IMG/VR virus record: IMGVR_UViG_3300034170_000025
Location: 1-58,179 of that record
Reading direction: 5' to 3' (one strand)
Source: a virus
Taxonomy: Duplodnaviria; Caudoviricetes
Length of the DNA stretch: 58,179 nt
Part shown: in pieces, positions 1,685 through 46,299 of the stretch
How the letters are laid out: each line of letters begins with the position of its first letter
Position numbering within the stretch: position 1 is the stretch's first letter
Made by a program: the position numbers and the translations under genes
Notes under the pieces: generated by a model
Database searches by the model: none
The model's input: the letters and a program-made list of their open reading frames with translations, nothing else
What the model was told of the DNA's origin: nothing

Positions 1685-1701
1685 TGTTCTAGGTGATTGA
1701 C

Positions 1702-1731
1702 AAAGGGAGTGTGCTTCGGTACACTCCCTTT
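1702..1731 (+). terminator. Intrinsic terminator hairpin
   Basis: AAAGGGAGTGTGC-TTCG-GTACACTCCCTTT stem-loop just after the helicase stop. Confidence 0.7.
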
Positions 1732-1753
1732 CGTCATTTAAGGAGAGAAAGAA

Positions 1754-1960
1754 ATGAAAAACGAAGAACTGCTTCTCGCTGAACAGAGAGTCCGTTATCT
1801 TTCAGAAGCTCTGCATAAGATTTCCTCTGATCTTGTTCAGGCAGGTATGTGTGGCTATGAGCCTAAGAGTGTTGAGATGATCGAGATGGGTAGCTGGGGT
1901 CTTGGGCTTTTCCCTATACTTGGCATCGAAACTGTGGAATATACATCGGAGGAAGAATGA
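1754..1960 (+). CDS. Hypothetical protein
   Basis: AAGGAG SD; ATGA overlap with polymerase start. Confidence 0.7.
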   Translation: MKNEELLLAEQRVRYLSEALHKISSDLVQAGMCGYEPKSVEMIEMGSWGLGLFPILGIETVEYTSEEE

Positions 1961-4221
1961 AACAAATTATCAACTGGCGGCAAGCGTCCATCGCTGACTT
2001 TGAGGCCGATGGCCTTCTTGATACAGTTACTCAAATGCACGTGATGTCTTACCAAATCCGCGAGATGAATGGAGACCTTTCAAAGGTATTCACGATTCGC
2101 CGAGACGATAAAAATTACATCCAACGTGTAGCGAAATTCTTTCAATATCACATTGACAAAAAGATTCCAGTTGTAATGCACAACGGTATCGGCTATGACG
2201 TTAAAATGGTTGAGAAGATTCTAGGTCTTGACTTGTCTGAGCTTATGGTGGTGGACACACTGATACTTTCTTGGTATCTGAGCCCTGAGCGTAATATGCA
2301 CGGCCTGGATTCGTTTTTTGACGACTACGGAATTGCAAAGCCAGTTATTGATAGCTGGGAACAAGGAGAAGAGGAGACCCTTGAAGAGTTCCTTGACCGT
2401 ATGCAAAATCGTTGCCAAGAAGACGTGAAGATCAACGTTGCTTTGTGGGAAGACCACATGGCTCGCCTGACTGACATGTACACACTGGCTCAAGGTTTTA
2501 TTGACTTTGGTCAGGAAGTTAAAAACACCAAGACAGGTGAAGTTGAAAAGGTTTTGAACGTTGGCGGCACTCGTATCTCCAGTGACGAGTGGATTCCTAT
2601 TGATGACATGATTGGTCAGAAAGTAGACACAGCAATCGACAAGATTATTACATTCCTGATGTTCAAGATGGATTGTGCCGCTCTGCAAGAGTCCACTCGA
2701 TGGGAGGTTGATGTTGACCACTGCCGTGAAGCTCTTGAGAAGCTTGAGGCTATCGTGCTTATCGCTCGTAGTGGCTTATCAGAGGTAATGCCAAAGGTTC
2801 CAAAATATGTAAAGAAGGCTGAGCCAAAGGCTGATAAGTTTAAGAAGAATGGTGATCGCAACTCTCACTGGGTGAAGTGGGACGAGGTTATGGAGAAGCT
2901 CAACTCTGGAGAAGTTGACGAAGAGACTGGTGCTCCGTTGGTCTTCATAAACCCAGAAGATGCACCGATTGAAGGGAAGCAAGCCTACCGTGTATGGCAC
3001 CATAACGAAGAGCCTAATCCGGGTTCACCGGGTCAAGTAAAAGACTTCCTGTTCAGCAAGGGTTGGGTTCCTCAGACATTCAAGTATGAGAAGGACGAGG
3101 TAGCGTTCGACGCATGGATTGCTTCGAAGCCACAAGGAAAGGCTGACCACAGGCAGTGGGAACGTTGGAAAAATGCTCGACCTGCTGAGCGGGCTATCCC
3201 ACAAATCTCTGTTGGTGGTGATGACGGCAAAGAGTTGTGCCCGAGCCTGCTAGACTTGGCTGAAGAGGTTCCAGCGATTAAGGTGTACGCTGACTACAAG
3301 GTGGCAGAGAACCGCCGTAATGTGCTCCTGGGGTTCTTCCGTGACATGACAGACGGGAAGTATTTGAAGGCTCGTATCGGCGGGCTGACAAACACTCTCC
3401 GAGTTAAGCACCGTGAGTTGGTTAACCTTCCAGGCACTGACAAGCCTTACGGTTACGACATTCGTGGTAGTTTGATTGCAGGCGTTAGGCGTATTCTAGT
3501 TGGTTCTGATATGTCCTCTCTTGAAGATCGTGTAAAGCACCACTTTATGCTGCCTCATGACCCTGAGTATGTAGCAACAATGCAAGCCCCAGATTTTGAC
3601 CCACACATACTCATGGCGTTGACAGCTATGATGATCAGTGAGTCGGAGTTCAAGGCATTTAAAGCTGATCCGAAAGGCAAGCACCCTGCCCACGTGAAGA
3701 AAGGCCGTAAGGATGGCAAGACTACAAACTATGCTTCCGTGTATAACGCTGGCCCTGCTAAGATCGCCCAGGCTGCTGGTGTCGACCTTGAGACAGGTAA
3801 GATGTTGCACACAGCCTACTGGGAGCTGAACTGGTCCGTAAAGACTATTGCAGAGGAGCAAGTTGTCTTCAAAGATGCACGCGGCATGAAGTGGCTGATC
3901 AATCCGATCAACGGTTTCTGCTACAGCCTGCGCTCTGAAGCTGACCGATTCTCTACCCTGGCTCAGGGCACTGGTAGCTACTTTTTTGATATGTGGGTTG
4001 ATAACATCTTGACTGAGCTGGTGCGTGTATTTGGTCGTAAGACTCTTACAGGCAGCTTTCACGACGAATGTATCATCTGCATGGGGGATAGCCCAGCGAA
4101 CCGTGAAAAGGTCGCCAAGATCATCAAGGACTCTGTCTATAAGGTAAATGATGATTTTGGACTACGCCGTAAGCTGGACTGTGATACCCAGTTCGGCCAA
4201 AGGTACAGTGATATTCACTGA
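1957..4221 (+). CDS. polA: Family A DNA polymerase with 3'-5' exonuclease domain
   Basis: Exo motifs DFEAD, HNGIGYD, RCQEDV; motif A GSDMSSLEDR, motif B RKDGKTTNYASVY (Tyr at the 762-equivalent position), motif C FHDE. Confidence 0.95.
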   Translation: MKQIINWRQASIADFEADGLLDTVTQMHVMSYQIREMNGDLSKVFTIRRDDKNYIQRVAKFFQYHIDKKIPVVMHNGIGYDVKMVEKILGLDLSELMVVDTLILSWYLSPERNMHGLDSFFDDYGIAKPVIDSWEQGEEETLEEFLDRMQNRCQEDVKINVALWEDHMARLTDMYTLAQGFIDFGQEVKNTKTGEVEKVLNVGGTRISSDEWIPIDDMIGQKVDTAIDKIITFLMFKMDCAALQESTRWEVDVDHCREALEKLEAIVLIARSGLSEVMPKVPKYVKKAEPKADKFKKNGDRNSHWVKWDEVMEKLNSGEVDEETGAPLVFINPEDAPIEGKQAYRVWHHNEEPNPGSPGQVKDFLFSKGWVPQTFKYEKDEVAFDAWIASKPQGKADHRQWERWKNARPAERAIPQISVGGDDGKELCPSLLDLAEEVPAIKVYADYKVAENRRNVLLGFFRDMTDGKYLKARIGGLTNTLRVKHRELVNLPGTDKPYGYDIRGSLIAGVRRILVGSDMSSLEDRVKHHFMLPHDPEYVATMQAPDFDPHILMALTAMMISESEFKAFKADPKGKHPAHVKKGRKDGKTTNYASVYNAGPAKIAQAAGVDLETGKMLHTAYWELNWSVKTIAEEQVVFKDARGMKWLINPINGFCYSLRSEADRFSTLAQGTGSYFFDMWVDNILTELVRVFGRKTLTGSFHDECIICMGDSPANREKVAKIIKDSVYKVNDDFGLRRKLDCDTQFGQRYSDIH

Positions 4222-4239
4222 TTTATTCTAGAGTGGGGG

Positions 4240-10082: not shown

Positions 10083-10856
10083 ATGAGTAAGCGTCACCTA
10101 GTAATCGCAGATACCCAGAATAAGCCAGATGAAAGCCTTGAGTATATGGGCTACATCGGCAAGTTTATCGCTGACAAACGCCCGGACGTTATCGTCCATA
10201 TTGGTGATCACTGGGACTTCCCAAGTCTGTCGAGCTACGACAAAGGCAAGAAGGTTATGGAAGGCCGTAGAGTCATTGATGACGTCAAGGCTGGACATGA
10301 CGGCATGCTTGAGTTGATGAAGCCTATCATCGCACTACAGGAGCAACAGCGTGCAAGTAAGAAGAAGGTTTACAACCCTAAAATGGTATTTACTCCTGGC
10401 AATCACGAGGATCGGTTTGACCGCTACGCCAATGACAACCCAGAGCTTTACGGCCTTGTTGGTGTGGATTCCCTCAATATTGAACAGTACGGCTGGGAAG
10501 TTGCTGACTATCTGAAACCAGTTTGCATTGATGGTATCTATTACGTCCACTACTTGGTAAACCCAATGAATGGACGCCCCCGAGCTGGTAATGCCGCTGC
10601 ACAGTTGAAGGCTGTAGGTTCTTCATTCGTTGTTGGTCACAAGCAGGTTCTGGATATTGCCATCGCTGATAACCAACTTGATGGTAAATACCGCATTGGC
10701 ATTATCAACGGTGCGTGCTATCCTCATGACGAAGCGTACAAAGGGCACCAAGGCAACAACCACTTCCGTGGTATCATGGTCTTGAACGAAGTTGAGGATG
10801 GCTTCGGCTTGCCTTGCCCAGTGTCTCTAGACTTCTTGACTAAAAAATACGCTTGA
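10083..10856 (+). CDS. Calcineurin-like metallophosphoesterase
   Basis: IADTQ, HIGDHWD, GNHE, VGH motifs. Confidence 0.88.
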   Translation: MSKRHLVIADTQNKPDESLEYMGYIGKFIADKRPDVIVHIGDHWDFPSLSSYDKGKKVMEGRRVIDDVKAGHDGMLELMKPIIALQEQQRASKKKVYNPKMVFTPGNHEDRFDRYANDNPELYGLVGVDSLNIEQYGWEVADYLKPVCIDGIYYVHYLVNPMNGRPRAGNAAAQLKAVGSSFVVGHKQVLDIAIADNQLDGKYRIGIINGACYPHDEAYKGHQGNNHFRGIMVLNEVEDGFGLPCPVSLDFLTKKYA

Positions 10857-10881
10857 CATCACTCTGGGGCTATCGTAAGAT
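10853..10881 (+). promoter_or_regulatory. sigma70 promoter
   Basis: TTGACA-17-TAAGAT; -10 lies within the GGGCTATC-GTAA-GATAGCCC hairpin. Confidence 0.75.
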
Positions 10882-10907
10882 AGCCCTCCTTTCGTTAAGG
10901 AGGTTTT

Positions 10908-11084
10908 ATGAAGCACGTAATTCTTGATAACACATACACTGTAGAGCAAATTGAAGACCTTGAGTTTTATGTTCAAAGGGCTTTTGATGAGGCTGGTCCA
11001 GCCATGCTGAAAGAACACGGTGAGGATGCTTGTATGAAAGCTACCTTCAGAGTTCGAATCGAGGTGGAGTTCGATGCAGAGTAA
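10908..11084 (+). CDS. Hypothetical protein (58 aa, not in ORF track)
   Basis: AAGGAGG SD; MKHVILDNTY...EFDAE. Confidence 0.7.
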   Translation: MKHVILDNTYTVEQIEDLEFYVQRAFDEAGPAMLKEHGEDACMKATFRVRIEVEFDAE

Positions 11085-11310
11085 GAAGCAGTCTCTCAAA
11101 GAAACACTTACCAACACTGGCGTTGGCATGGTGGGTAGTTGGCTCATTACGATGGGCACATTCAGCGCCCTTGGGGTTTCGAGTGTAGCAGGCAATGCAC
11201 TAGCCTCCACTGTAGCCACAATCGGCTGTACAGTTTGGAGCATTGGGCGTGGCTATACGATCAGACGCTATTTTAATAAACAACATCAGAAGGAGAAGAC
11301 AAATGAGTGA
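11074..11310 (+). CDS. Small membrane protein
   Basis: Two hydrophobic segments; QSKKQSLKE..N..VG and RGYTIRRYFN pattern. Confidence 0.7.
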   Translation: MQSKKQSLKETLTNTGVGMVGSWLITMGTFSALGVSSVAGNALASTVATIGCTVWSIGRGYTIRRYFNKQHQKEKTNE

Positions 11311-11500
11311 GCTTGTGAGCTTGAAGGACGTTGTAAGCCTGCCAGAGGCAGTTGAGTTCCTAGAAGGACTGCTGACCCAGCATGGAGACACTGAAGACGC
11401 CATGATGATCTTGCTGTTGAAGGTCAGCCTTACAAAAGCAATCCTTGAGAAAGCACTAGGGGCTGACCCAATCATCGTTACATTGGAGGATGTGGAATGA
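11303..11500 (+). CDS. Hypothetical protein
   Basis: AAGGAG SD before ATG 11303. Confidence 0.65.
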   Translation: MSELVSLKDVVSLPEAVEFLEGLLTQHGDTEDAMMILLLKVSLTKAILEKALGADPIIVTLEDVE

Positions 11501-12150
11501 GTGTTAGAGTAATTACAATCCAAGAGATGCTAGATTTACCAAAAGGCGCTCACGCTGTTTTGGTAAAGAACGTCGATGATCTGGATGGCGGTGGCCTAGA
11601 GGCAGGGGCTGAACTGACCAAGAAGGGTGAAGTGTTTGATGACAAGCAAAGTGTAGGGTTTTGGCACTCAAGCGGGCAACGGTGGGACTTCTTTGAAGAG
11701 GGGGAAGTTGGAGTTGTTGAACAAACAGCTACAAATTTTGATCTGTCTGTCTTCTCACCAGAAACTGGTGAGCCTGTCCTGGGCGTATTTCGTCCTGATC
11801 TGGATACGCGAAAAGTTGGAAAGGTTCGTGTTGAGTTGGTCGACGAAGGCTTCCCACTCGCATTGCGTGAAGTTGCTAAGGTCATGACTTGGGCACAAAC
11901 TGCGAAAGGTTATAAAGACCACGACTGGCAAAACCTACCAAATGCTGAAGTTGCTTTAGCTGCTGCGGCCAGCCGCCATCGCACAGACCATATCGAACAA
12001 AGGGTTGTAAAAGGTCTTGACACTGAGGAGTGTGTGGATGTAGAATCCTCACTTCACCACAAGGCCCATGAAGCTTTTGGTGTACTCGCTCAACTTGAGT
12101 TGATGTTACGTGGCAAGTTTGTTGACAAGCATACTGCATACGCGGTATAA
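11497..12150 (+). CDS. dATP/dGTP diphosphohydrolase domain (DUF5664-like) fused to an N-terminal beta domain
   Basis: K..GK.RVELV...AL.EVAKVMT...KGY..HDW...AAASRH...H.AH pattern in the C-terminal half. Confidence 0.7.
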   Translation: MSVRVITIQEMLDLPKGAHAVLVKNVDDLDGGGLEAGAELTKKGEVFDDKQSVGFWHSSGQRWDFFEEGEVGVVEQTATNFDLSVFSPETGEPVLGVFRPDLDTRKVGKVRVELVDEGFPLALREVAKVMTWAQTAKGYKDHDWQNLPNAEVALAAAASRHRTDHIEQRVVKGLDTEECVDVESSLHHKAHEAFGVLAQLELMLRGKFVDKHTAYAV

Positions 12151-12151
12151 T
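12122..12151 (+). promoter_or_regulatory. sigma70 promoter
   Basis: TTGACA-18-TATAAT. Confidence 0.65.
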
Positions 12152-12219
12152 ATTACCCAAGCAAGACAATGAAAGGGAAACCCGTTAAAAGGTTTCCCTT
12201 TGTTATTTAAGGAGAATTA

Positions 12220-13128
12220 ATGACAATCACTGCCAAAATTATCGCTCACTCTATCTCACCATATGGTCATCATATCGTTACATGGGAGTTGGAGTACCCT
12301 CGTTTTATCCATGGGGAGTTTATGACTCACCGACTATTCTCTCGTAATGCAGCATCCAGTAGAGCTATTCCCGTAAAGAATATCATCGAACAAGTAAGAA
12401 ACAGCCCTGCAATGCCCATACATTGGGGAGTAAACGAGCCTGGAATGCAAGCGTCCAATGTGCTGTCTGATGCTCTAACCGCATCCGCGAAGTACATCTG
12501 GAAGAAGGCAGCAGAATATGCTGCTGATTTTGCTGAATGTCTTGTGAAGATCGGGTTACACAAGCAAGCAACAAACCGCATCCTCGAACCCTTCCAGACA
12601 ATGAAGACTGTAATGACAGCAACTTGTATGGACAACTTCTTCTGGTTGCGTAATCACCCAGACGCACAACCTGAAATCAAAGAGCTTGCTCGTTTGATGT
12701 GGGAAGCTTTGCAGGAGAGCAACCCTGTTATAATCGGCCCAGGTGATTGGCACGTTCCGTACTTTGGAACTGGGCAGTGGTATCACAACTACCCAGAGGA
12801 CAGCCTTAAAGATGCTCTGGCAATCTCGGCTAGCTGCTGCGCCCAAGTGAGTTACCGTAAGCTGGATGATACGCTGGAGAAGGCCCAGATGGTGTATAAA
12901 CGCCTTGTAGAGAGCGAGCCGGTACATGCCAGCCCATTCGAACACCAAGCCACGCCAATCGAGGTGCCTGATATGTTCTGTGAAGACTGTCAAGAGCAAT
13001 CTGTCTGGGAAGACGGCGTAACCCACGTAGACCGTAACAAGAAGTTCTGGTCTGGCAATTTTATCGGTTGGATTCAACATCGCCAACTTATTCCGAATAA
13101 CGTTTGCACTAAATACGAGGCTAAATAA
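12220..13128 (+). CDS. thyX: Flavin-dependent thymidylate synthase
   Basis: THRLFSRNAASSRAIP, HKQATNRILEPF, AQPEI, HASPFEH motifs. Confidence 0.92.
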   Translation: MTITAKIIAHSISPYGHHIVTWELEYPRFIHGEFMTHRLFSRNAASSRAIPVKNIIEQVRNSPAMPIHWGVNEPGMQASNVLSDALTASAKYIWKKAAEYAADFAECLVKIGLHKQATNRILEPFQTMKTVMTATCMDNFFWLRNHPDAQPEIKELARLMWEALQESNPVIIGPGDWHVPYFGTGQWYHNYPEDSLKDALAISASCCAQVSYRKLDDTLEKAQMVYKRLVESEPVHASPFEHQATPIEVPDMFCEDCQEQSVWEDGVTHVDRNKKFWSGNFIGWIQHRQLIPNNVCTKYEAK

Positions 13129-13466
13129 TGGCTGATTACGCACTGAGTTTCCACGACCTGATGATGGTTGATGGCTTTAAAGAAGCACACGATACACAGA
13201 ACAAGAAAGTATTCGAAGCGATTCTACAGACGAATGGCTTTGAGGTGAGTTTGGGTTACGAGCTTGTAGCCTGCAACCACCGAACAATCAACAACATTGA
13301 GTACTACGGAATTCGTGTTGAAGGTTTTGAACGTACAGATAAGGCATGGATTGACACAGGATGTGCGAGCATGGAAGCCCAGATCGAAGCAGCTAAAGAC
13401 AAGAGCCTGAGACATACGCTACGTCAAATGAGTTATCAGGGTACACTAACTCCTATCAGTGAATAA
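13128..13466 (+). CDS. Hypothetical protein
   Basis: TAATG coupling with thyX. Confidence 0.7.
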   Translation: MADYALSFHDLMMVDGFKEAHDTQNKKVFEAILQTNGFEVSLGYELVACNHRTINNIEYYGIRVEGFERTDKAWIDTGCASMEAQIEAAKDKSLRHTLRQMSYQGTLTPISE

Positions 13467-13474
13467 GGAAACAT

Positions 13475-14533
13475 ATGACCAATAAGACAAGATCGGAGGC
13501 GGGCGTAATGCCCGTCCCGTTTGACTGGAACGCCAAGACTCGAATTATGACTGAGACAGACAGTTACGCAATTGTCTATCCACAGTTCTTAGAGTTTGCT
13601 GACCAGCAGTTCGACAAGCAGTTCTGGACAAACACAGAAATGAAGGTTGAGCTTGACCGGATGCAGTTGCTGTTTGAGTTAACTCCAGCACAGTTACACG
13701 CTGTAAAATTTGTACTCCAACTGTTCCTCAAGTATGAGTTGATTGTTGGTGAAGAGTTTTGGAATGGACTATTTATTAGGGTCTTCCCAACTCCCGAAGC
13801 TAAGGCTATGGCTGCGGCTTTTGCTGCATTTGAACTTCAAGTTCATGCACGGTTCTACAACCAACTAAATGTGCAACTTGGCCTCGACACAGACGAACAT
13901 TATCGTGCGTATGCTGCTAACCCTGAGTTGGCTGCACGTGTTGAGTGGCTTGAAAAGGTACTTAGTGGGGAAGACAAACTGCTGTCTGTTATAGTTTTCT
14001 CGATGACTGAGACTGCGTTGCTCTTTGCTAGCTTCGCAATCCTGAAGAGCTTTCAAACTAATGGGTACAACAAAATCGCTGTAACTGTTCGTGGAACTAA
14101 CCAGTCTGCAATTGATGAAGACTTGCATGGCTTGGCCGCAGCCTGGGCAGTTAACCAACACTACAAAGAGTTGGGACGTCCGCTGCGTGAGGACACTGTA
14201 AGAGTTGAACAGATTTACAAGGCTATTCAATATGCCTACGAACATGAATGTTTGATCATTGATCTTGCGTTCCTTGAAGATACGCTCAATGGTATGACTA
14301 AAGAAGACTTCAAGAACTACATCAAAGTGAGGCTTAACGTCTTTGCAGAACGCCTCGGACTTGATCTTCCATTCCCTGGAGTTACCTCTCCAATCACTAA
14401 GTGGTTTGAGCTGGGCACAGACTCGTATAAAATGGTTGACTTCTTTACGCCTGGAATGGGCCTTGAATATGAGAGTGGCTGGGATGAAACTGGGTTCATT
14501 CGTGGATATATTGAAACAGGGGAAATTGAATGA
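13475..14533 (+). CDS. nrdB: Ribonucleotide reductase class I beta subunit
   Basis: Di-iron motifs ELQVHARFY and DEDLH; adjacent to nrdA. Confidence 0.9.
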   Translation: MTNKTRSEAGVMPVPFDWNAKTRIMTETDSYAIVYPQFLEFADQQFDKQFWTNTEMKVELDRMQLLFELTPAQLHAVKFVLQLFLKYELIVGEEFWNGLFIRVFPTPEAKAMAAAFAAFELQVHARFYNQLNVQLGLDTDEHYRAYAANPELAARVEWLEKVLSGEDKLLSVIVFSMTETALLFASFAILKSFQTNGYNKIAVTVRGTNQSAIDEDLHGLAAAWAVNQHYKELGRPLREDTVRVEQIYKAIQYAYEHECLIIDLAFLEDTLNGMTKEDFKNYIKVRLNVFAERLGLDLPFPGVTSPITKWFELGTDSYKMVDFFTPGMGLEYESGWDETGFIRGYIETGEIE

Positions 14534-16260
14534 ATTACTCAGCACTGAGAAAACAACAGATTGAGGATGGAGTGTGCCCACCGTGGTACACTACCGGGGG
14601 TATCCAGTTGTTCTACGACAAGTACTCGTATAACAATGAAACAGTTAAGAGCCGCTTCCGTGCAGTTGCACGGGCACTGGCACAGCACGCTCCTGAAAGT
14701 TACCCTGAGTGGTGGAACGCCAACCCATACTGGGCAGGGAAGACTTGGGAAGACGCATTCTACCAGACGATGTGGGACGGTTTTATCAGCCCCTCCACTC
14801 CGCTCCTTGCTAATGGTGGCCTGCGTCATCGTGGCACGACTGTAAGCTGTGCTGGTGGCAACGTTGGCAATAGTCTGGCAGATCGTTATGACTTCTTAAC
14901 AGAAGCTGCTATCCTGACAAAACACAGCCACGGTACAAGTTACTGTATTGATGACTGGCCTGCCGAAGGTGATAAGATTCGTGGTGGACGTTCCCAGGGT
15001 GTGATGCCTTTGATTCGTGACATCATCAACGTGATGGAGGAAGTGGCTCAAGGTCCACGACGCGGGAGTTGTGCATACAGCTTAAGACCACAACACGGTG
15101 ACTTTGATAAGGTGGCTGATTACCTGTATGAGCGTACCGAGAGTAACAATGTTGGTTGGCTAATCGATGATGAATTTATCGACCTGATGAAGGAAGAAGA
15201 CCCAGAGGCTCTACGCAAGTTTGCTAAGATGCTTGGGATTAAGATGCCACGTGGTAAGGGCTACTTTTCGTTCATTGACAAGATGAACCGCAGGCTGGCT
15301 AAAGCCTTTAAGCGAGCTGGAAGACGTGCTCGTGCATCAAACCTGTGCCAAGAGACAAACTTGATTGCAGATGATGACTACACATTTAGTTGTGTTATCC
15401 TCAACTATAACCTTGAGCTGTACCGTAGCTGGCCTGAACACCTTGTGTTTGTTGGTCAAGTTATGAGTGATTGCAACGTAAGTGAATATATTGAGACGAT
15501 GGAGACCACGCTGTCTAAGAAAGACTTGAGAGCAATGGAGAAAATCCTACGCTTTACCAAGGAATTCCGTGCACTGGGTTCTGGCGTTCTGGGGCTACAC
15601 ACCCTGTTCCAGGCTGAGATGTTGTCTGTCTCTAGCATGGAAGCCATGATGTTGAACACAAAGATTTTCCGTGGCATCGAGAAGGATGCAATCTCGGCGA
15701 ACTCTTGGTTGGCAGTTACTATGGGAGAGCCTGTAGGCTGTGCAGGGCTTGGACAACGCAATGCTACAATGCTGATGATGCCTCCTACCAAATCAACCGC
15801 TGAGTTGATGGCAGGAGCTTCTGAGGGTATTGGCCTGGACGTTGCCATGTGCTTCACCAAACAATCCGCTGGTGGTGAATTCTTCCGCATCAACAAAGTG
15901 CTGTTAGAGTTGATCAAGAGGAAGGGGTTGGATATCAGCCAGTGTGTTAAAGACATGAACTCCCAAAAAGGTTCTGTGCAACACGTAAGCTGGTTGAGCG
16001 ACGAAGAGAAGGCTGTATTCAGAACAGCATTTGAGATTCCAATGGAAGATCACTTGCGTCTGTGTTCCCAACGTCAGAACTACATCGACCAAGGTCAGAG
16101 TATTAACCTCTACTTTACGTCGAATGACACACCAGAGTATATTGGCAAGATTCACCGTATCGCTTTTGACGATCCAAATATCCTGTCTCTGTACTACATC
16201 TATTCCATGAGGGGCGCCGGGGAAATTACCCGTGTAGAATCTTGTGAGATGTGCCAATAA
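14530..16260 (+). CDS. nrdA: Ribonucleotide reductase class I alpha subunit, no ATP cone
   Basis: SPSTP, VSC, SNLCQE, PPTKST, DQGQSINL, SLYY, C-terminal CEMCQ. Confidence 0.93.
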   Translation: MNYSALRKQQIEDGVCPPWYTTGGIQLFYDKYSYNNETVKSRFRAVARALAQHAPESYPEWWNANPYWAGKTWEDAFYQTMWDGFISPSTPLLANGGLRHRGTTVSCAGGNVGNSLADRYDFLTEAAILTKHSHGTSYCIDDWPAEGDKIRGGRSQGVMPLIRDIINVMEEVAQGPRRGSCAYSLRPQHGDFDKVADYLYERTESNNVGWLIDDEFIDLMKEEDPEALRKFAKMLGIKMPRGKGYFSFIDKMNRRLAKAFKRAGRRARASNLCQETNLIADDDYTFSCVILNYNLELYRSWPEHLVFVGQVMSDCNVSEYIETMETTLSKKDLRAMEKILRFTKEFRALGSGVLGLHTLFQAEMLSVSSMEAMMLNTKIFRGIEKDAISANSWLAVTMGEPVGCAGLGQRNATMLMMPPTKSTAELMAGASEGIGLDVAMCFTKQSAGGEFFRINKVLLELIKRKGLDISQCVKDMNSQKGSVQHVSWLSDEEKAVFRTAFEIPMEDHLRLCSQRQNYIDQGQSINLYFTSNDTPEYIGKIHRIAFDDPNILSLYYIYSMRGAGEITRVESCEMCQ

Positions 16261-39341: not shown

Positions 39342-39641
39342 TCTGGAGTTTCTCCTTTGATGTATTTTTGCATCAGTGTTTTGTAGTCAAGCGTCTCTCC
39401 AGGGTGAGCCTCCTTATAAGAGGCCACCCACCAAGACCAACCACCAACAGTGTCTTTAGCTGTCTTCACCAGTTACACCCGCAGTGTGATGGATGACCTT
39501 GAGGCATACAGCAAACTTTCTGTTGTGGTGCTCCCCAGCCAGATTGGTAACTGGCCTGAACTGCCCACTCTAGATTGTAGAGTTCACGTTCTGCCTCTTC
39601 GATAATACGTTTGAGTTCTTGCCTCCGCATTTCAATGGTCT

Positions 39642-39896
39642 TCACCGAATGATCCTCCCGTTAAAGTTTGCATACCCTTCTTTATCGTCGTCATCGTAGA
39701 TGGTCCATGTAGACCTACACTCGCAGCACGCCACACTGATCCAGTAGCAGTCTGAAGTGGGGTCATAGTTACCAGTACTCCCGCCATACTTACCTGTCTT
39801 GTCAGTGTGAGGGCAGGTAGCTTGCAGTTCAGCCAGCTCTTGGGACAGTCGACTACGCATTGTGATGATGCGTGCTACACGTTCTTTGATAGTCAT
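39642..39896 (-). CDS. Hypothetical Zn-binding-like protein
   Basis: LQATCPH...CCEC; ATGA overlap. Confidence 0.65.
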   Translation of the reverse strand: MTIKERVARIITMRSRLSQELAELQATCPHTDKTGKYGGSTGNYDPTSDCYWISVACCECRSTWTIYDDDDKEGYANFNGRIIR

Positions 39897-40369
39897 TTCT
39901 GCCAATTGTAGCACCCCCCACGGTCTCCCCAGCAGCAACACTCCTTACCTTTGTCACAATACCCTGTAGAGCCAGTCAGGTGCAATAGGGCACCTTCGAT
40001 GGTTCCCATTTTGTCTACTGCTTCCTTCGCCTCTTTAAGGCCGCACCCTGCACGTTCCCGTACAGTCTTGATCATCATCACCTTACTAGCTACGAGTGGT
40101 GTTGGTGTGAAGTCGGATGCCCACTGCACTGCTGTTTCAGCAATAACTTTCTCATTTTCAAGGGCCAGGAGAAGGGATTCAAGAAGTTGGACGGCCTTCT
40201 CCTTGTTTGCATGCTGACTACGCTCACTGTCACAGGAGATACCAAGACCTGACGGAATATGGTGTGCAATGATCCCACCTGTGGTGAGGCCAACAGTCAT
40301 ACCGCCAGCCCCATGTCCAGTCTGTGGCAGGTAGGATGTGATTCGGATATCAAACAGACTAATCGCCAT
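39893..40369 (-). CDS. Class I release factor-like domain (GGM in place of GGQ) fused to an L7/L12 CTD-like motif
   Basis: GAGGMTVGLT..GIIAHHIPSGLGISCDSERSQHANKEKA and KVMMIKTVRERAGCGLKEAKEAVD. Confidence 0.75.
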   Translation of the reverse strand: MAISLFDIRITSYLPQTGHGAGGMTVGLTTGGIIAHHIPSGLGISCDSERSQHANKEKAVQLLESLLLALENEKVIAETAVQWASDFTPTPLVASKVMMIKTVRERAGCGLKEAKEAVDKMGTIEGALLHLTGSTGYCDKGKECCCWGDRGGCYNWQK

Positions 40370-40793
40370 AGTGGAGTATTTCCTCAAAAGTGTTTTCAAA
40401 GTTTTCTAGAACAGCCTCGTTGAACCAACGGCTTGCTCCTGTGGGGCAGAGTGTACCACATTTAGCTAATGCGTCAATGAATTTCTTATATTCTCTCTGC
40501 TCTTTGAGGTTCTTTTCGTGCTCGGTTTGCACGCCATACCAACCATACCCGGAGGTTTCAATCTGATGACCCGCATCGTTCACCAGTACAAGCACTTGCT
40601 CGGTGAATCCAGGGTTCCGTTCAGAGCGGTAGACATAACTGCTCTTGAAGTACCAGTTTTGGTTTCCAGCAATACGTTGGAGTTCATAAACCAAGTGCTG
40701 AGATACCTCAAGTGTTTCCTCTAGCTTCTTGTAGAACGTGAAGTCGCTAGAACCGTATCCGTTCTCCATACGATAGCATTTGCGTTTGTCCAT
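40359..40793 (-). CDS. Hypothetical protein
   Basis: GGAGG SD; TAATG coupling. Confidence 0.65.
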   Translation of the reverse strand: MDKRKCYRMENGYGSSDFTFYKKLEETLEVSQHLVYELQRIAGNQNWYFKSSYVYRSERNPGFTEQVLVLVNDAGHQIETSGYGWYGVQTEHEKNLKEQREYKKFIDALAKCGTLCPTGASRWFNEAVLENFENTFEEILHYGD

Positions 40794-41493: not shown

Positions 41494-41880
41494 TCACAGA
41501 CTTTGGGAGTGTGTGGTTGTTCCATTTTCAATTACCACCGCTTCATGAGAGTAGTAGCCATTATGCTCGTTATAAGCCACAAATTGCAAGACACCTTTTG
41601 AAGTTTTGATGTTCACGAACATGCAATCACTCTCATAGACGCTACCCAGGGAAGTGGTTGCTAGTTTACTGTCAACAACCTCTGCACTCAGGTACTCCGC
41701 ACCTACGAACTCTTCTAGGGAGTCCTCAGAGGTTAGGTAGCCCCAGTTCTCACAGCAGCTCTGACCATTGCTGATACCCATCTTGATCTGCGTGTCGTCT
41801 TCAAGTGTGATAACGTAGCCGTCATAACCGCTCCAAGAGCCACGGCCCCAAGTAGTTTCTTCGATAGACTTAATCTTCAT
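41494..41880 (-). CDS. Conserved phage hypothetical protein
   Basis: QSCCE.WG...TSKG.LQ..AYNEHNGYYSH; AAGGAG SD. Confidence 0.7.
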   Translation of the reverse strand: MKIKSIEETTWGRGSWSGYDGYVITLEDDTQIKMGISNGQSCCENWGYLTSEDSLEEFVGAEYLSAEVVDSKLATTSLGSVYESDCMFVNIKTSKGVLQFVAYNEHNGYYSHEAVVIENGTTTHSQSL

Positions 41881-41925
41881 TTTACTCTCCTTATATTTTG
41901 ATTTTATGTACACACTTCCCACAGG

Positions 41926-42712: not shown

Positions 42713-43294
42713 TTATGCGAAGGCTTTCAATACTTCGTTAGGGTTGGCCTGGGCCGACTCACCAACTGGTTGGAAACCCCAACCATTGCCAGTACGTTGC
42801 AGAGTACCCACGTGCAGTGCAGTACCATTTACGAACTGTTGCAGCTTGTATTGTGCCAACAGGTTATTGTCTTGGTCGTACAGATCGAAACTACCACCAG
42901 CAATCATACTGAAGTCTTGTTGACGTGCAATCGCGTCGTGCAAGAAGACAAAATGCTCAATCTTGTCGATGTTTGCTGGAACTTTACCAATCTCAACGAA
43001 AATTTCTTCGTCATCCTGACCATCAACGTCTGCACCGTTGCGGTTATCACGAGGCAGAACTACAGCACCATTGTAGCAATCTTTGTTGTTGAAGAAGCAA
43101 ACATTCTTCATATCACCTTGGATACTGCCATTGCTGGTCAGGAACATGAAGATGTCAAGGTCAAACTCATGGCCTTTGCTTGCCATTGGGTGCAGGTTCC
43201 AGTTCAGAGCACCACGCAGACGGGTCAGCGAAGGTGCAATTTTGGTCAGGTCCAACATCAGGGTATCTTTGCTCAAGTTAAGCTCCATTATCAA
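42713..43294 (-). CDS. terD: TerD-family stress protein
   Basis: FDLD, FFNN, DNRNG...GQDDE, GWGFQPVG motifs. Confidence 0.9.
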   Translation of the reverse strand: MIMELNLSKDTLMLDLTKIAPSLTRLRGALNWNLHPMASKGHEFDLDIFMFLTSNGSIQGDMKNVCFFNNKDCYNGAVVLPRDNRNGADVDGQDDEEIFVEIGKVPANIDKIEHFVFLHDAIARQQDFSMIAGGSFDLYDQDNNLLAQYKLQQFVNGTALHVGTLQRTGNGWGFQPVGESAQANPNEVLKAFA

Positions 43295-43354
43295 GTTCCT
43301 CTTTAGTAGTAAGTTGAGGCGCCATTTTGACGCCTCTTTCAGTTTCAGTTTGTG

Positions 43355-44035
43355 TCAAGCTTCTTTGCTGAGTTTCTTAGCAGTAAATGCAGCCGCTACA
43401 ACGATACCAGCACCAACAGCTTTAGCGATCCAGTGGTTCACTTCGCCGATGTATTCAATGAAGTGTGCGTCAGATACGATCATTTCAGCACCAACAACAC
43501 CCAACATACCAGCACCAATCCAGATAATCACTGGGAATTTATCCATCAGACCAGACAAGTACTTAGCACCGTAGACAATGATTGGGATGCTCAATACGAT
43601 ACCAGCGATTGCGTACAGTGTAGAGTGAGCACCAGTGCTAGAAGCAGCACCTGCCACAGCCATTACGTTATCCAGCGAGAGCATGAAGTCAGCTACAATG
43701 ATGGTCCATACAGCGCCCCAAATTGTAGATTTCTGTTCAACTTCTGGGTCTTCTTCATGACCTGTCAACAGCGAGTAACCAATCCAGACCAAGTAAATAC
43801 CAGCGAAAATCTTCAGGAATGGGATACCCAGCAAGAAGGTTGCGAATACCAGCAGGACAGCTCGGAGTGCGATGGCGCCAGCAGTACCAAGCAGGATTGC
43901 TTTACCACGAACACTTACAGCCAGAGAAGCACATGCCAGAGCGATCACGATTGCGTTGTCTAGACCCAGAAGCAGGTCAATCATCGTGATCTTAAAGATC
44001 GCAGCCCAGTCGAGCATTGCGAAGAATTCCATCAT
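43355..44035 (-). CDS. terC: TerC-family integral membrane protein
   Basis: DLLLGLDNAIVIALA, IIVADFMLSLDNVMAVAG. Confidence 0.92.
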   Translation of the reverse strand: MMEFFAMLDWAAIFKITMIDLLLGLDNAIVIALACASLAVSVRGKAILLGTAGAIALRAVLLVFATFLLGIPFLKIFAGIYLVWIGYSLLTGHEEDPEVEQKSTIWGAVWTIIVADFMLSLDNVMAVAGAASSTGAHSTLYAIAGIVLSIPIIVYGAKYLSGLMDKFPVIIWIGAGMLGVVGAEMIVSDAHFIEYIGEVNHWIAKAVGAGIVVAAAFTAKKLSKEA

Positions 44036-44070
44036 TTTTGTTTCCCCTTTCAGTTTGTTTGTGTGGGGCC

Positions 44071-44099
44071 ATCTTATCTAATGGCCCCCATATTGTCAA
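44071..44099 (-). promoter_or_regulatory. sigma70 promoter
   Basis: TTGACA-17-TAAGAT; GGGGCCAT..ATGGCCCC inverted repeat around -10. Confidence 0.75.
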
Positions 44100-44103
44100 C
44101 TAT

Positions 44104-44754
44104 TTATTTGGTTGCGAACGCTTTAAATTCTTCGTTCAGCAACAGCTCATAGAACTTGTTCTGATCGATAGCCTTCGGGTCCGTGATGTACAGCACTTCA
44201 ACAGTGTCATACTTCGCAGCGATAGCGTCCAAATAACGTTTATCGCAACCATTACCGATAGCAACGATCTGTACAAAGGTGTTCTCCAGCGAGTCTAGCT
44301 GAGCTTCAAACTCACGCTTATCGTTGTTGGCACCATCGGTGATCAGTGCCAGATAGGTTGGGGTTACAGGCTTAGCTGCACCGAAACCGAACAGACCGCG
44401 TTTTGTTGCCTGACCTTTCAGACCTGCAATAGCGTCTGCGAAGTTTGTCCCGCCGCCTGCACGAATACCATGCTTACGGATGTAAGTGTGTGCATCATCT
44501 ACAGTCATATCTGGTGTACGGTCAAACGAAGTGTTGAAGAAACCAATCTCCATCTTGCCGTCATCATCAAATTTCATAGCTGCTGCCAGGAACAGGTCAA
44601 GAGTGTCTTGTACCCAACCACATGCGAACTCGTCGTCCATCGAGCCAGATTTATCTACCGCCAGCTTTACTGCCATGATGATTGGTGTGAAAATCTGAGC
44701 CTTTTCAAGATTCAGTTCCAGAGCTTTGGTCAAGTCTAACATTGGCATACCCAT
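44104..44754 (-). CDS. vWA domain protein (TerF C-terminal-like)
   Basis: DKSGSM, FDDDG, GGGTNFA, ITDG. Confidence 0.85.
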   Translation of the reverse strand: MGMPMLDLTKALELNLEKAQIFTPIIMAVKLAVDKSGSMDDEFACGWVQDTLDLFLAAAMKFDDDGKMEIGFFNTSFDRTPDMTVDDAHTYIRKHGIRAGGGTNFADAIAGLKGQATKRGLFGFGAAKPVTPTYLALITDGANNDKREFEAQLDSLENTFVQIVAIGNGCDKRYLDAIAAKYDTVEVLYITDPKAIDQNKFYELLLNEEFKAFATK

Positions 44755-44777
44755 ATATCCTCCTTTGGTTTGATGTG

Positions 44778-45905
44778 TTAAATACTACCGGATTGTTTTA
44801 ATGCTGTCAACAGACTTTTTTGTCCATTTGCCAGCTCTTTTGCATCTGTAGTGCAACGTGCAACGTCATCTCGCTCGATCTGACGTACCTCAGTTACAGT
44901 CTCCAGTACACGCTGACGCAATGTGCTCAGAGTCTCAGTAGAGATGGTCGCAGTACCCAATGCCTTAGCACTGTTGATGGCAGCGATCTTAGCACCTTCA
45001 CTACCTTTGAGCAAGCTCTTTTCAGTGAGGTCACGCACGTTACTCACGAGCTGGATGCTGCTGTTCACGTCCAGGGTCTGTTTGAACAAAGCAAACTCCA
45101 TCATGATTACTGGAATATTCATCATGATGCCTTTCAGCGTAGACACTGCTGTACGGCTCGACTCCTGCTGCTGGCGAATCCGTGGACTGTTGATTTCAGT
45201 CATAGTTTTCAGACGCAGCAGGGTGTCCAGCTTCAACTTCAGACGGTGAATCTTAGACTCAGCATCACGCACCATCTGAGCTTCCATTGCAGCGTTAGGA
45301 CCACTCAGGTCAATCTCAGGCCACGACGCAACTTGGGATTCACACATGTCGATCAGGCTCTGTACTTCACGCATCTCAGAGGTGATCTTACCATAGTGGT
45401 TGTAGTTCTCGCCATACAAACCTTCCATGTCAGTGATCCACTGTTGTTGAGTGGTGATGTTCACGGAGATTTTATTCTCCAGGTCACCAAACACTTGCTG
45501 TGCAGAAGATAGACGCATGGTTAGCGTATTCTTCAGGTCACTGAATTTGTTCTGGAACCAGCCTACCACACCACCCTTCTGAAGGGAAGCAGGATCAAGC
45601 TTATCAGCTTCAGAGGCAATAACAGTTAGGATTGCACCTAGCTCTTCAAACTTGCCAACAGACATTTTGGTGATAATCTTCTGAGTGGTGTTACCCAACT
45701 CACGAGAGACGTTTTCACCAATACGGTCAATGTCTTCGTCAGACACGACCAGATTACGTGATGGCAGGCCAGCTTCACGAATTGTGGCAGGGAACGCCGA
45801 ACTCCTGCCAACAGGGGTTTCGGCGATCACAACTGAAACCTCACCAGCCTTCAAGCCACCAGTTGGCGCTGGCTGAAGTCCCGCTCTAGCAAATACTTTA
45901 CTCAT
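44778..45905 (-). CDS. telA: TelA/XpaC-type toxic anion resistance protein
   Basis: Long coiled-coil protein, LDP..L.K.G..GWF motif, ter-cluster context; AAGGAG SD before ATG 45905. Confidence 0.7.
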   Translation of the reverse strand: MSKVFARAGLQPAPTGGLKAGEVSVVIAETPVGRSSAFPATIREAGLPSRNLVVSDEDIDRIGENVSRELGNTTQKIITKMSVGKFEELGAILTVIASEADKLDPASLQKGGVVGWFQNKFSDLKNTLTMRLSSAQQVFGDLENKISVNITTQQQWITDMEGLYGENYNHYGKITSEMREVQSLIDMCESQVASWPEIDLSGPNAAMEAQMVRDAESKIHRLKLKLDTLLRLKTMTEINSPRIRQQQESSRTAVSTLKGIMMNIPVIMMEFALFKQTLDVNSSIQLVSNVRDLTEKSLLKGSEGAKIAAINSAKALGTATISTETLSTLRQRVLETVTEVRQIERDDVARCTTDAKELANGQKSLLTALKQSGSI

Positions 45906-45912
45906 AGTGGGT

Positions 45913-46299
45913 TTACTCTCCTTTCTCAATTCGGCCAATTTCTGTAGGGGTGTCACTGTGTTTACCACTCCATTTTAGTGTGCGGCCATTCAGCCCGTGG
46001 AAGAGAATATACCCGTCTTTCGAGAACAGGTCAACACCTTTCGAGACATCTTCCCCGTAACGTGTTGGAACTTCAAACCCCTCCAAGTCGTAAAAAGACC
46101 AGCGCTCGCCGCAGCACTCACACCAATAACGAGCATCATCTTTGTCGATCATATCTTGCATAATAGCAAACGCTTGATCAACGTTCATAGCTTGTACGAA
46201 TACAACATCTGCAACAAAATCACCACGCTCGTAGTAACCACCAGAGTTATTCTGGTCAAACTCGTACCACAAAGCACCTTCAATTTTTACTGGAAGCAT
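45913..46299 (-). CDS. Conserved phage protein (QNNSGG/CECCGERW family)
   Basis: WYEFDQNNSGG...CECCGERW; GGAG SD; promoter TTGACA-17-TAGAAT at 46373-46345. Confidence 0.7.
   Translation of the reverse strand: MLPVKIEGALWYEFDQNNSGGYYERGDFVADVVFVQAMNVDQAFAIMQDMIDKDDARYWCECCGERWSFYDLEGFEVPTRYGEDVSKGVDLFSKDGYILFHGLNGRTLKWSGKHSDTPTEIGRIEKGE

Follow-up and report, generated by a model that had tools for sequence, protein, structure and literature searches.

Can a release-factor (RF) domain act on the ribosome when the Gln in its GGQ motif, a residue treated as universally conserved in peptide-release proteins, is a methionine? The question is raised by a gene in IMG/VR virus record IMGVR_UViG_3300034170_000025 (Duplodnaviria; Caudoviricetes), whose positions 1 to 58,179 we analyzed as one 58,179-nucleotide (nt) stretch, here called the window. 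The gene corresponds exactly to one open reading frame (ORF) on the minus strand, within a tight run of small minus-strand genes, and its product, P0001, is referred to below as the RF-like protein. An earlier reading made from the letters alone (the sequence-only reading) had proposed a release-factor-like domain with GGM in place of GGQ, fused to a module resembling ribosomal protein L7/L12 (bL12). We find that the protein carries a head of the RF1/RF2 domain-3 type, that GGM prevails in the loop of this head in a phage family, and that the head is followed by a C-terminal cassette that is bL12-like in one helical hairpin.

Is the N-terminal part indeed a release-factor domain? Both peptides quoted in the sequence-only reading are present in the ORF, at residues 20-60 and 95-118, and the profile searches that it had proposed as a check support its assignment. 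Pfam RF-1 (PF00472) matches residues 18-79, profile positions 19-81 of 116, with 44.9 bits against a gathering cut-off of 35, and Ribosomal_L12 matches further along the protein with 28.7 bits against a cut-off of 25.9. As both scores lie above curated cut-offs, neither match is due to chance. A phmmer comparison with PDB chains pairs residues 6-80 with E. coli RF2 and RF1 in their domain 3 (E ~3e-8), and Met24 falls under the Gln of GGQ. NCBIfam models rank in the order prfB (46.2 bits, cut-off 370), prfA (46, cut-off 423) and prfH (36.4, cut-off 166.65), the prfA and prfB matches being to domain 3 only, and Pfam finds no PCRF or codon-recognition domain. ArfB gave no PDB sequence match and no NCBIfam match at the thresholds used.

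If the head is a release-factor domain, its predicted fold should say so as well. We modeled the full-length protein with AlphaFold2 on a 106-row family alignment, A1 (mean predicted local distance difference test score, pLDDT, 77.6). In the head, the model has strands at residues 8-13, 32-37 and 42-46 and a long helix at 52-86, with GGM on a low-confidence loop (14-31); the C-terminal part has helices at 91-107, 111-121 and 124-132, followed by a low-confidence Cys-rich end. The best Foldseek matches are RF1/RF2 domain 3 on ribosomes (E 1.9e-4, ~85 columns, probability 1.00), so that structure prediction, named in the sequence-only reading as a possible refutation, returns the RF-1 fold. PrfH and mitochondrial release factors follow, and GGS and GGD mutant RF structures are also listed. 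According to a published comparison, an inserted helix in the GGQ domain sets YaeJ/ICT1 apart from release factors (PMC3950681). This helix is missing in the phage head, where a 4-residue turn joins strands 32-37 and 42-46 before helix 52-86 begins, and the RF2 alignment requires no insertion at that site. Because RF1 and RF2 hold the top Foldseek and NCBIfam ranks, ArfB gives no match and the YaeJ/ICT1 helix is absent, the head is of the RF1/RF2 type, and domain 3 of these factors is its best match in both sequence and fold.

Is methionine at the Gln position peculiar to one isolate? The Met24 codon (40298..40300) reads cat on the plus strand and so ATG in the coding direction, with the two Gly codons at 40301..40306; the codon aligns with the Gln of the RF2 motif, as had been proposed. 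A word-indexed search returned 113 homologues, giving 114 proteins with the query. In 86 of these the loop is GGM, which is thus the majority state and not private to the isolate. Another five have an ORF called from that Met onward; 11 have GGQ, two SGM, one GGL and one GEM, and in eight the loop is replaced by a shorter HGN, HGS or GY segment. Alignment A1 leaves out ten truncated or fragmentary rows (P0003, P0032, P0105, P0107, P0108 and P0110-P0114) and takes in P0115 and P0118 from an exhaustive search. On a tree of A1 built with the loop columns removed, the nine GGQ rows require nine changes, of which at least four are forced by starred branches; given the 'quick' tree method and the few columns, we treat four as the safe figure. 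Methionine and glutamine are found in the sister pairs P0099 (M) and P0106 (Q), with support 100, and P0075 (M) and P0085 (Q), with support 97. The residue after a loop Gln is always H, Q or M, but H never follows a loop Met, whose next residue is T, S, Q, M, A or R; at one locus with DNA, CAG CAT encodes the canonical QH. The scattered GGQ would reflect either several replacements of Gln by Met or an N-terminal segment that recombines between phages. Under both origins, the two residues are interchangeable in this family, with Met predominating, which fits a packing role for the side chain.

Is the loop maintained? In seven coding sequences, from the window and from related loci L001-L006, the Gly codons vary synonymously (GGC/GGA for one, GGT/GGC/GGG/GGA for the other) and ATG is kept. 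Across these sequences the head has a median ratio of nonsynonymous to synonymous substitution (dN/dS) of 0.17, from the 19 of 21 pairs that were usable, and the C-terminal three-helix module one of 0.23, from 13 of 21 pairs; both values are rough as dS, at ~1.5, is near saturation. None of the 106 rows of A1 departs from E49, R50, S51, Q52, N55, A59, L63 or K115, and G23 is present in 99% of them; the first seven of these eight residues are near-invariant in cellular RF domains too. Our cellular comparison set consists of 76 RF-domain segments from the best 150 hits of the exhaustive search, picked by a pattern requiring GG and [RK]SQ, so that those residues are conserved in it by construction. 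With RF1/RF2 the RF-like protein has in common G20, G22, G23, T29, S31, H37, P39, G41, C46, E49, R50, S51, Q52, N55, A59 and L63, and the family keeps the cellular residue at G20, T29, S31, H37, P39, G41, C46, E49, R50, N55, A59 and L63. Compared with RF1/RF2, the phage protein is without domains 1, 2 and 4 and has a family-specific LPQ insert at residues 14-16. The head is under purifying selection and is a remodelled, selected domain 3 and not a decaying copy. The strict conservation of GG and ERSQ..N..A, together with a dN/dS of ~0.17, argues for a working loop.

What follows the head? The sequence-only reading had seen the helix pair of the L7/L12 C-terminal domain. The helix pair stood, and the likeness to the domain as a whole did not. 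The Ribosomal_L12 match covers residues 94-122, profile positions 10-38 of 67; residues 94-120 are identical to E. coli bL12 helices 4 and 5 at 15 of 27 positions, counted by hand on the PDB-hit alignment, and T. maritima bL12 is matched among PDB sequences with E 4e-4. Beyond this hairpin, the PDB sequence comparison shows no bL12 likeness, and Pfam finds no match to the N-terminal dimerisation or bL10-binding domain of bL12. Residues 87-158 were also modeled by themselves, from an alignment of 77 rows (pLDDT 69.8, ~84 over the helices). In both models residues 91-132 form helices only, with no bL12-type beta-sheet; a third helix completes what is predicted to be a UBA-like bundle. In Foldseek searches with this module, EF-Ts N-domains from EF-Tu:EF-Ts and Q-beta replicase complexes rank 1-5 and 7-11 (root-mean-square deviation, rmsd, 0.9-1.6 over 36-38 columns; probability 0.89-0.97; E 0.4-1.0), ahead of NAC and other UBA domains; the best of them, from EF-Tu:EF-Ts complexes, reach an rmsd of 1.1-1.3 over 37 columns with probability 0.97. 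The bL12 entries align over 23-27 hairpin columns in three of four cases, and 1ctf over 50 columns at an rmsd of 6.8. VIA, a structure aligner independent of Foldseek that was run against 48,161 chains, lists almost wholly UBA, CUE and EF-Ts N-domains (Z 4.1-6.3), among them mitochondrial EF-Ts 1xb2_B (Z 5.4, rmsd 1.0 over 41 residues). The predicted module thus superposes on UBA and EF-Ts N-domains, which is a likeness of fold and not proof of homology; its sequence similarity to EF-Ts 1efu_B is weak (E 2.2), and the remainder of EF-Ts is missing from the phage protein. A search of the ESM Atlas with residues 88-158 gave no usable hit.

Only one other stretch of the protein is more conserved than the hairpin, which has a column identity of 0.75-0.89 over residues 101-120. 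The same 28-residue bL12 helix 4/5 hairpin also occurs in two to six tandem copies in the bacterial proteins P0120, P0121, P0122, P0126 and P0147, some of which bear a membrane anchor or a zinc ribbon and several of which also hit DUF6793; to our knowledge, no function has been described for them. What might such a module bind? The C-terminal domain of bL12 is reported to contact EF-Tu at helix D, by an interface described as homologous to the one between EF-Ts and EF-Tu, and the EF-Ts N-domain has served as a model for this binding (PMC5770553). Among phage proteins, some have been described that contain bL12 domains, and these were proposed to be interfaces for translation factors (PMC6375957). 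Given this shared interface and these precedents, a translational GTPase would be a reasonable partner for the module. A predicted complex of residues 87-138 with Pseudomonas EF-Tu (EFTU_PSESM) scored 0.11 against a mark of 0.32, was run without controls, and is used here neither for nor against this idea.

The head and the module are joined by an acidic helical spacer (isoelectric point, pI, 4.05) that has the lowest column identity in the protein (0.15-0.30), and the distance from ERSQ to the hairpin ranges from 40 to 76 residues across the family. At the other end lies a conserved part that the sequence-only reading did not mention, a Cys-rich tail, type A (pI 7.56), in which C138, C144, C146 and C153 are invariant among the 77 rows of alignment A2 and which we presume to bind metal. 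Counting architectures by pattern in 118 family proteins, some of the short ones perhaps fragments, we find head, hairpin and tail A in 77; head and hairpin with another ending or none in 34; head and tail A without the hairpin in three; the head only in three; and hairpin and tail A only in one. In eight members (P0068, P0062, P0066, P0043, P0053, P0099, P0106 and P0111) tail A is replaced by a type B tail, CxMPQGHPxHCGCxW, and a tail of this type also ends a small ORF close to the RF-like gene in the window. These short, metal-binding-looking tails seem to be cassettes shuffled among small genes of these phages. On a related phage contig of ~98 kb (L007), a 175-residue protein at the syntenic position (3704..4231, plus strand) has the hairpin with the third helix and tail A, but its N-terminal head is Cys-rich and unrelated, and its only Pfam match is a sub-threshold one to Ribosomal_L12 (20.4 bits). 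Since it is found behind an unrelated head, the C-terminal cassette is portable. The RF-like protein can be read as an effector head that a flexible arm links to this cassette.

How would release work with such a loop? In the published picture, catalysis of release lies with the ribosome, and the contribution of the factor is the main-chain amide of the Gln, placed by two glycines whose backbone only Gly can adopt; the Gln side chain serves to pack the active site and to select water, and is fixed in its orientation by methylation (PMC4691834, PMC6742477, PMC5799190). Of substitutions at the Gln position, Pro alone abolishes release (PMC4691834). Our data establish the domain identities, the family-wide GGM, the purifying selection and the modular architecture; ribosome binding, peptidyl-tRNA hydrolysis and a partner for the cassette we infer. 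In our preferred reading, to which we give a probability of about 0.4, the protein is a codon-independent factor that acts at the A site and peptidyl-transferase centre, does without PrmC and is aimed by its cassette. Four parts follow one another in it: the RF1/RF2 domain-3 head, a helical spacer that varies, the UBA-like module of three helices and a knuckle of four Cys. The head would enter the A site of the large subunit so that the GGM loop reaches the peptidyl-transferase centre without codon reading. There it would most likely promote peptidyl-tRNA hydrolysis on host ribosomes, perhaps more slowly and with altered nucleophile selectivity, and the purpose may be rescue or clearing of stalled ribosomes, or premature release. 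The portable cassette would serve for aiming, through contact with a translational GTPase such as EF-Tu or with the factor-binding region, and would stand in for ArfB's mRNA-channel tail and for the domains with which RF1/RF2 read codons. PrmC methylates the Gln, and as Met takes its place here, the protein cannot depend on this host enzyme. We favor this reading because the two glycines are kept under selection, the ERSQ..N..A cap is retained, and tolerance of M, Q and L at the third position fits the published account of catalysis. The more specific picture of a 'guided release factor', a GGM hydrolase head without PrmC methylation that is brought to host ribosomes by a module binding EF-Tu or another GTPase and neither by codon reading nor by mRNA-channel sensing, strikes us as unlikely.

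Several observations weigh against the preferred reading. Six near-invariant canonical residues are replaced family-wide (Q24M, 0.81; N27G, 0.90; A32G, 0.97; R34I, 0.70; T36H, 0.84; Q47D, 0.90). Five basic positions are lost: residues 17, 28, 34, 64 and 66 are K or R in 52-97% of 73 cellular GGQ domains and in 0-2% of phage rows. The net charge of the head (residues 7-70) is -0.3 +/- 0.8, compared with +3.4 +/- 2.2 in the cellular domains, and a near-neutral head without these positions would be unexpected for a protein that binds rRNA. Met has no side-chain carbonyl, the group of Gln that is proposed to orient water (PMC5799190). In ten of the 106 A1 rows the GG(M/Q) loop is replaced altogether and all other parts are retained, so that not every member can have hydrolysis as its function. 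For the module, the structural matches are middling: Foldseek E is ~0.4, and VIA Z is <8, a range in which, by the tool's warning, a match can reflect a common arrangement. Together, the lost basic positions and the loop-less members argue that the head does not work exactly as it does in RF1 and RF2.

Some of these same facts would be expected if the head occupied the A site without catalysis, docking at the peptidyl-transferase centre with a GGM loop that does not hydrolyse and so blocking or tuning host translation. Such an occupant could shut translation off, compete with RF1/RF2, ArfB or tmRNA, or shield ribosomes from a defence toxin. The missing carbonyl (PMC5799190), the six replaced canonical positions around the loop, and the loop-less members, which retain both ERSQ..N..A and the C-terminal cassette, all speak for it, as does the position of the gene among small function-unassigned genes typical of host take-over regions. 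A pure blocker, however, has no need of both glycines, yet these are kept under synonymous codon turnover; at the Gln position Pro alone is reported to abolish release (PMC4691834); and the loss of basic residues disfavours tight rRNA binding by a blocker as well. We consider a non-catalytic role unlikely.

Could the fold have left the ribosome altogether? The head might be exapted as a scaffold that binds protein or RNA, with the upstream 144-residue protein as a candidate partner, or PrmC, for which GGM would be a dead-end pseudo-substrate. The charge-neutral head with its five lost K/R positions is consistent with this, and so are the hydrophobic LLESLLLAL face of helix 52-70, where cellular release factors have K/R, and the upstream gene, which stays close by in related loci and overlaps the RF-like gene in the window. 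There is also precedent in RF homologues that lack GGQ and have gained a new function, such as PrfB3, which stabilises an mRNA (PMC5897788, PMC3472500). Against exaptation, the family shows exactly the conservation of working release factors at ERSQ..N..A, H37, P39 and the two glycines, the partners are candidates only, and D11T and R34I, which change together, may be a compensated structural pair and not a lost RNA contact. This explanation we likewise hold to be unlikely.

The cassette might instead be the business end, titrating, redirecting or protecting EF-Tu or another translational GTPase, with the RF head secondary. Such a decoy or adaptor would account for the conservation of the hairpin and the module's dN/dS of 0.23, the same cassette behind a different head in L007, the tandem hairpins of bacterial proteins, and the role proposed for phage bL12-domain proteins (PMC6375957). 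But 117 of 118 family proteins have the RF head by pattern, in three members head and tail follow each other with no hairpin between them, and the head is under constraint at least as strong as that on the cassette, which makes this account very unlikely. That the protein is a codon-reading terminator, as the GenBank name 'peptide chain release factor 1' of homologues in VCM, REC1, COT4, Kremar, PHB09 and the phiPsa series implies (others are called hypothetical), has virtually no chance of being right, as it has 158 residues, domain 3 alone and no PCRF or codon-recognition domain, prfA and prfB scores far below cut-off, and GGM in place of GGQ, so that its domain content excludes the name.

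Which known systems come closest to the one preferred here, a codon-independent factor aimed by its cassette? ArfB (YaeJ) and ICT1, stand-alone and codon-independent peptidyl-tRNA hydrolases, are likewise small proteins in which a catalytic RF domain, without codon-reading domains, is joined to a C-terminal extension for targeting; they have GGQ where the phage protein has GGM, and a basic mRNA-channel tail where its acidic spacer leads to a UBA-like module and then a Cys knuckle. PrfH (RF-H) is likewise a truncated RF homologue outside normal termination, and matches the phage head in sequence (E 2.2e-5) and fold, but it retains GGQ and a second domain. Plant PrfB3 and mtRF2b, RF homologues in which GGQ is lost and function has changed (PMC5897788, PMC3472500), set a precedent within the family for a non-GGQ tripeptide. 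In these accounts they are full-length RF2 derivatives, whereas the phage protein is a single domain with both glycines maintained by selection and a swap at the Gln alone. With the bL12 C-terminal domain the phage module has the helix 4/5 hairpin sequence in common, and differs in having only part of the profile, no beta-sheet, no bL10-binding domain and a third helix. The bL12 phages of Mizuno et al. (2019) have genomes of <80 kb, and no release-factor fusion appears among them in the available text of that paper, supplements aside (PMC6375957).

Where does the family occur? DNA and protein searches place the window among Otagovirus-like phages of Pseudomonas syringae and P. fluorescens and one Pectobacterium/Dickeya phage; the genomes of these relatives are 94-101 kb, and all named family members are Otagovirus-like. 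Sixty-eight phage records have a match, 38 of them over at least 80% of the protein, and 41 are from Pseudomonas phages. In Listeria, Salmonella, Escherichia, Acinetobacter and 'Bacteriophage sp.' records, what is matched is 35-61% of the query, in the RF domain only; where annotated, these hits are prfA or prfB features, and we do not count them as members. Nor is the hit in 'Pseudomonas phage Y1' (L020, OQ572403.1) a member: it is an ordinary full-length RF2-like protein with GGQ (985..1887). The Y1 record is marked UNVERIFIED and is GC-rich around this gene, which looks like host DNA and not a phage gene. As to a cellular origin of the fusion, at least seven loci were confirmed in a scan of one prokaryote genome per species, and none is listed with both modules. 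We found no discussion of the gene in the literature, supplements and most subscription journals being outside the search; its sole mention is a table row, 'peptide chain release factor', in the PHB09 genome paper, and 'release factor' is absent from the main texts of the Otagovirus papers searched. Within this literature, an architecture in which a bL12/EF-Ts-like module and a Cys knuckle follow an RF head is undescribed. Among stand-alone release-factor catalytic domains, this one is set apart by a GGM loop that is natural and under selection and by a proposed targeting cassette of a new kind.

The features discussed here are placed on the window in the table below, together with nearby genes.

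Positions in the window of the RF-like gene, its parts and genes nearby
Feature	Coordinates	Strand	Basis or remark
Whole gene, RF-like protein P0001	39893..40369	minus	158-aa ORF, TGA stop 39893..39895
Head, RF domain-3 type, residues 1-70	40160..40369	minus	Pfam RF-1, phmmer against PDB, AlphaFold2/Foldseek, dN/dS
Gly22-Gly23-Met24 (GGC GGT ATG), at the place of GGQ	40298..40306	minus	sequence, RF2 alignment, family tally
ERSQHANKEKA, residues 49-59	40193..40225	minus	common to cellular release factors
Acidic helical spacer, residues 71-93	40091..40159	minus	poorly conserved, variable length
UBA-like three-helix module, residues 94-133	39971..40090	minus	Pfam, PDB, AlphaFold2, Foldseek, VIA
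bL12 helix 4/5-type hairpin (module helices 1-2), residues 94-122	40004..40090	minus	Pfam Ribosomal_L12
Cys-rich tail A, residues 134-158	39896..39970	minus	presumed metal-binding
Upstream 144-aa gene, phrog_37145	40359..40793	minus	11-nt overlap with start of RF-like gene
Downstream gene, phrog_4837	39642..39896	minus	likely ATG 39896..39894 overlaps RF-like TGA (ATGA)
Small 59-aa ORF ending in type B Cys/His tail CCMPQGHPSHCGCNW	39466..39645	minus	two genes downstream
TerD	42713..43294	minus	tellurite-resistance-type cluster
TerC	43355..44035	minus	tellurite-resistance-type cluster
vWA-TerF-like	44104..44754	minus	tellurite-resistance-type cluster
TelA	44778..45968	minus	tellurite-resistance-type cluster

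The start of the RF-like gene, the ATG at 40369, is in line with the N-termini of homologues, and the protein matches phrog_35727 over its full length (E 1.5e-71), a PHROGs family of unassigned function. Its sole conserved neighbour is the phrog_37145 gene, which lies no more than 170 nt upstream in six of six related loci with the full gene; the match in L004 is partial only. The 144-residue product of this gene had no match in Pfam, NCBIfam, PADLOC or PDB sequences and no usable ESM Atlas hit, and PADLOC matched nothing for the RF-like gene and five neighbours. On the other side, the ATGA overlap of the RF-like stop with the downstream start suggests that these two genes may be translationally coupled. 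The phrog_4837 match begins at residue 21 of the 99-residue reading of this downstream gene, which is not kept beside the RF-like gene in the other related loci compared. We found no tRNA genes in the window. No RNA run was among the six runs listed for expression, and the best DNA run had 0.48 of the words.

Other genes of these phages are recorded here as observations in their own right. A 142-residue protein at 41494..41922 of the window (minus strand) matches DUF7448 (66 bits) and nothing else. The phage also carries a tellurite-resistance-type cluster (42713..45968, minus strand) that is common to other otagoviruses, with 81-86% DNA identity. In phage VCM (L001), the stretch 10180..15007 near the RF-like gene has annotations for DprA, a Macro-domain protein, nicotinate phosphoribosyltransferase and ribose-phosphate pyrophosphokinase, gene types often linked to counter-defence or NAD salvage.

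What does this family mean for the biology of these phages and of release factors? In more than 100 sequences from Otagovirus-like phages both glycines are selected, Met is used, and Met and Gln have been swapped at least four times, so the family is a natural experiment on the purpose of the Gln side chain and of its methylation. The architecture would be a third way of aiming an RF head at ribosomes, beside codon reading and mRNA-channel sensing. If the 'guided release factor' picture were true, the repeated Q-to-M replacement would show that the 'universal' Gln of GGQ is dispensable in nature, and nascent chains could be released or cleared from host ribosomes whenever the virus chose. The genes stand in public phage records under a mistaken name, and several of the carrier phages are in cultivation, some of them studied for biocontrol, which makes the question directly testable. 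The design shared by these related phages points to an unstudied viral action on host protein synthesis.

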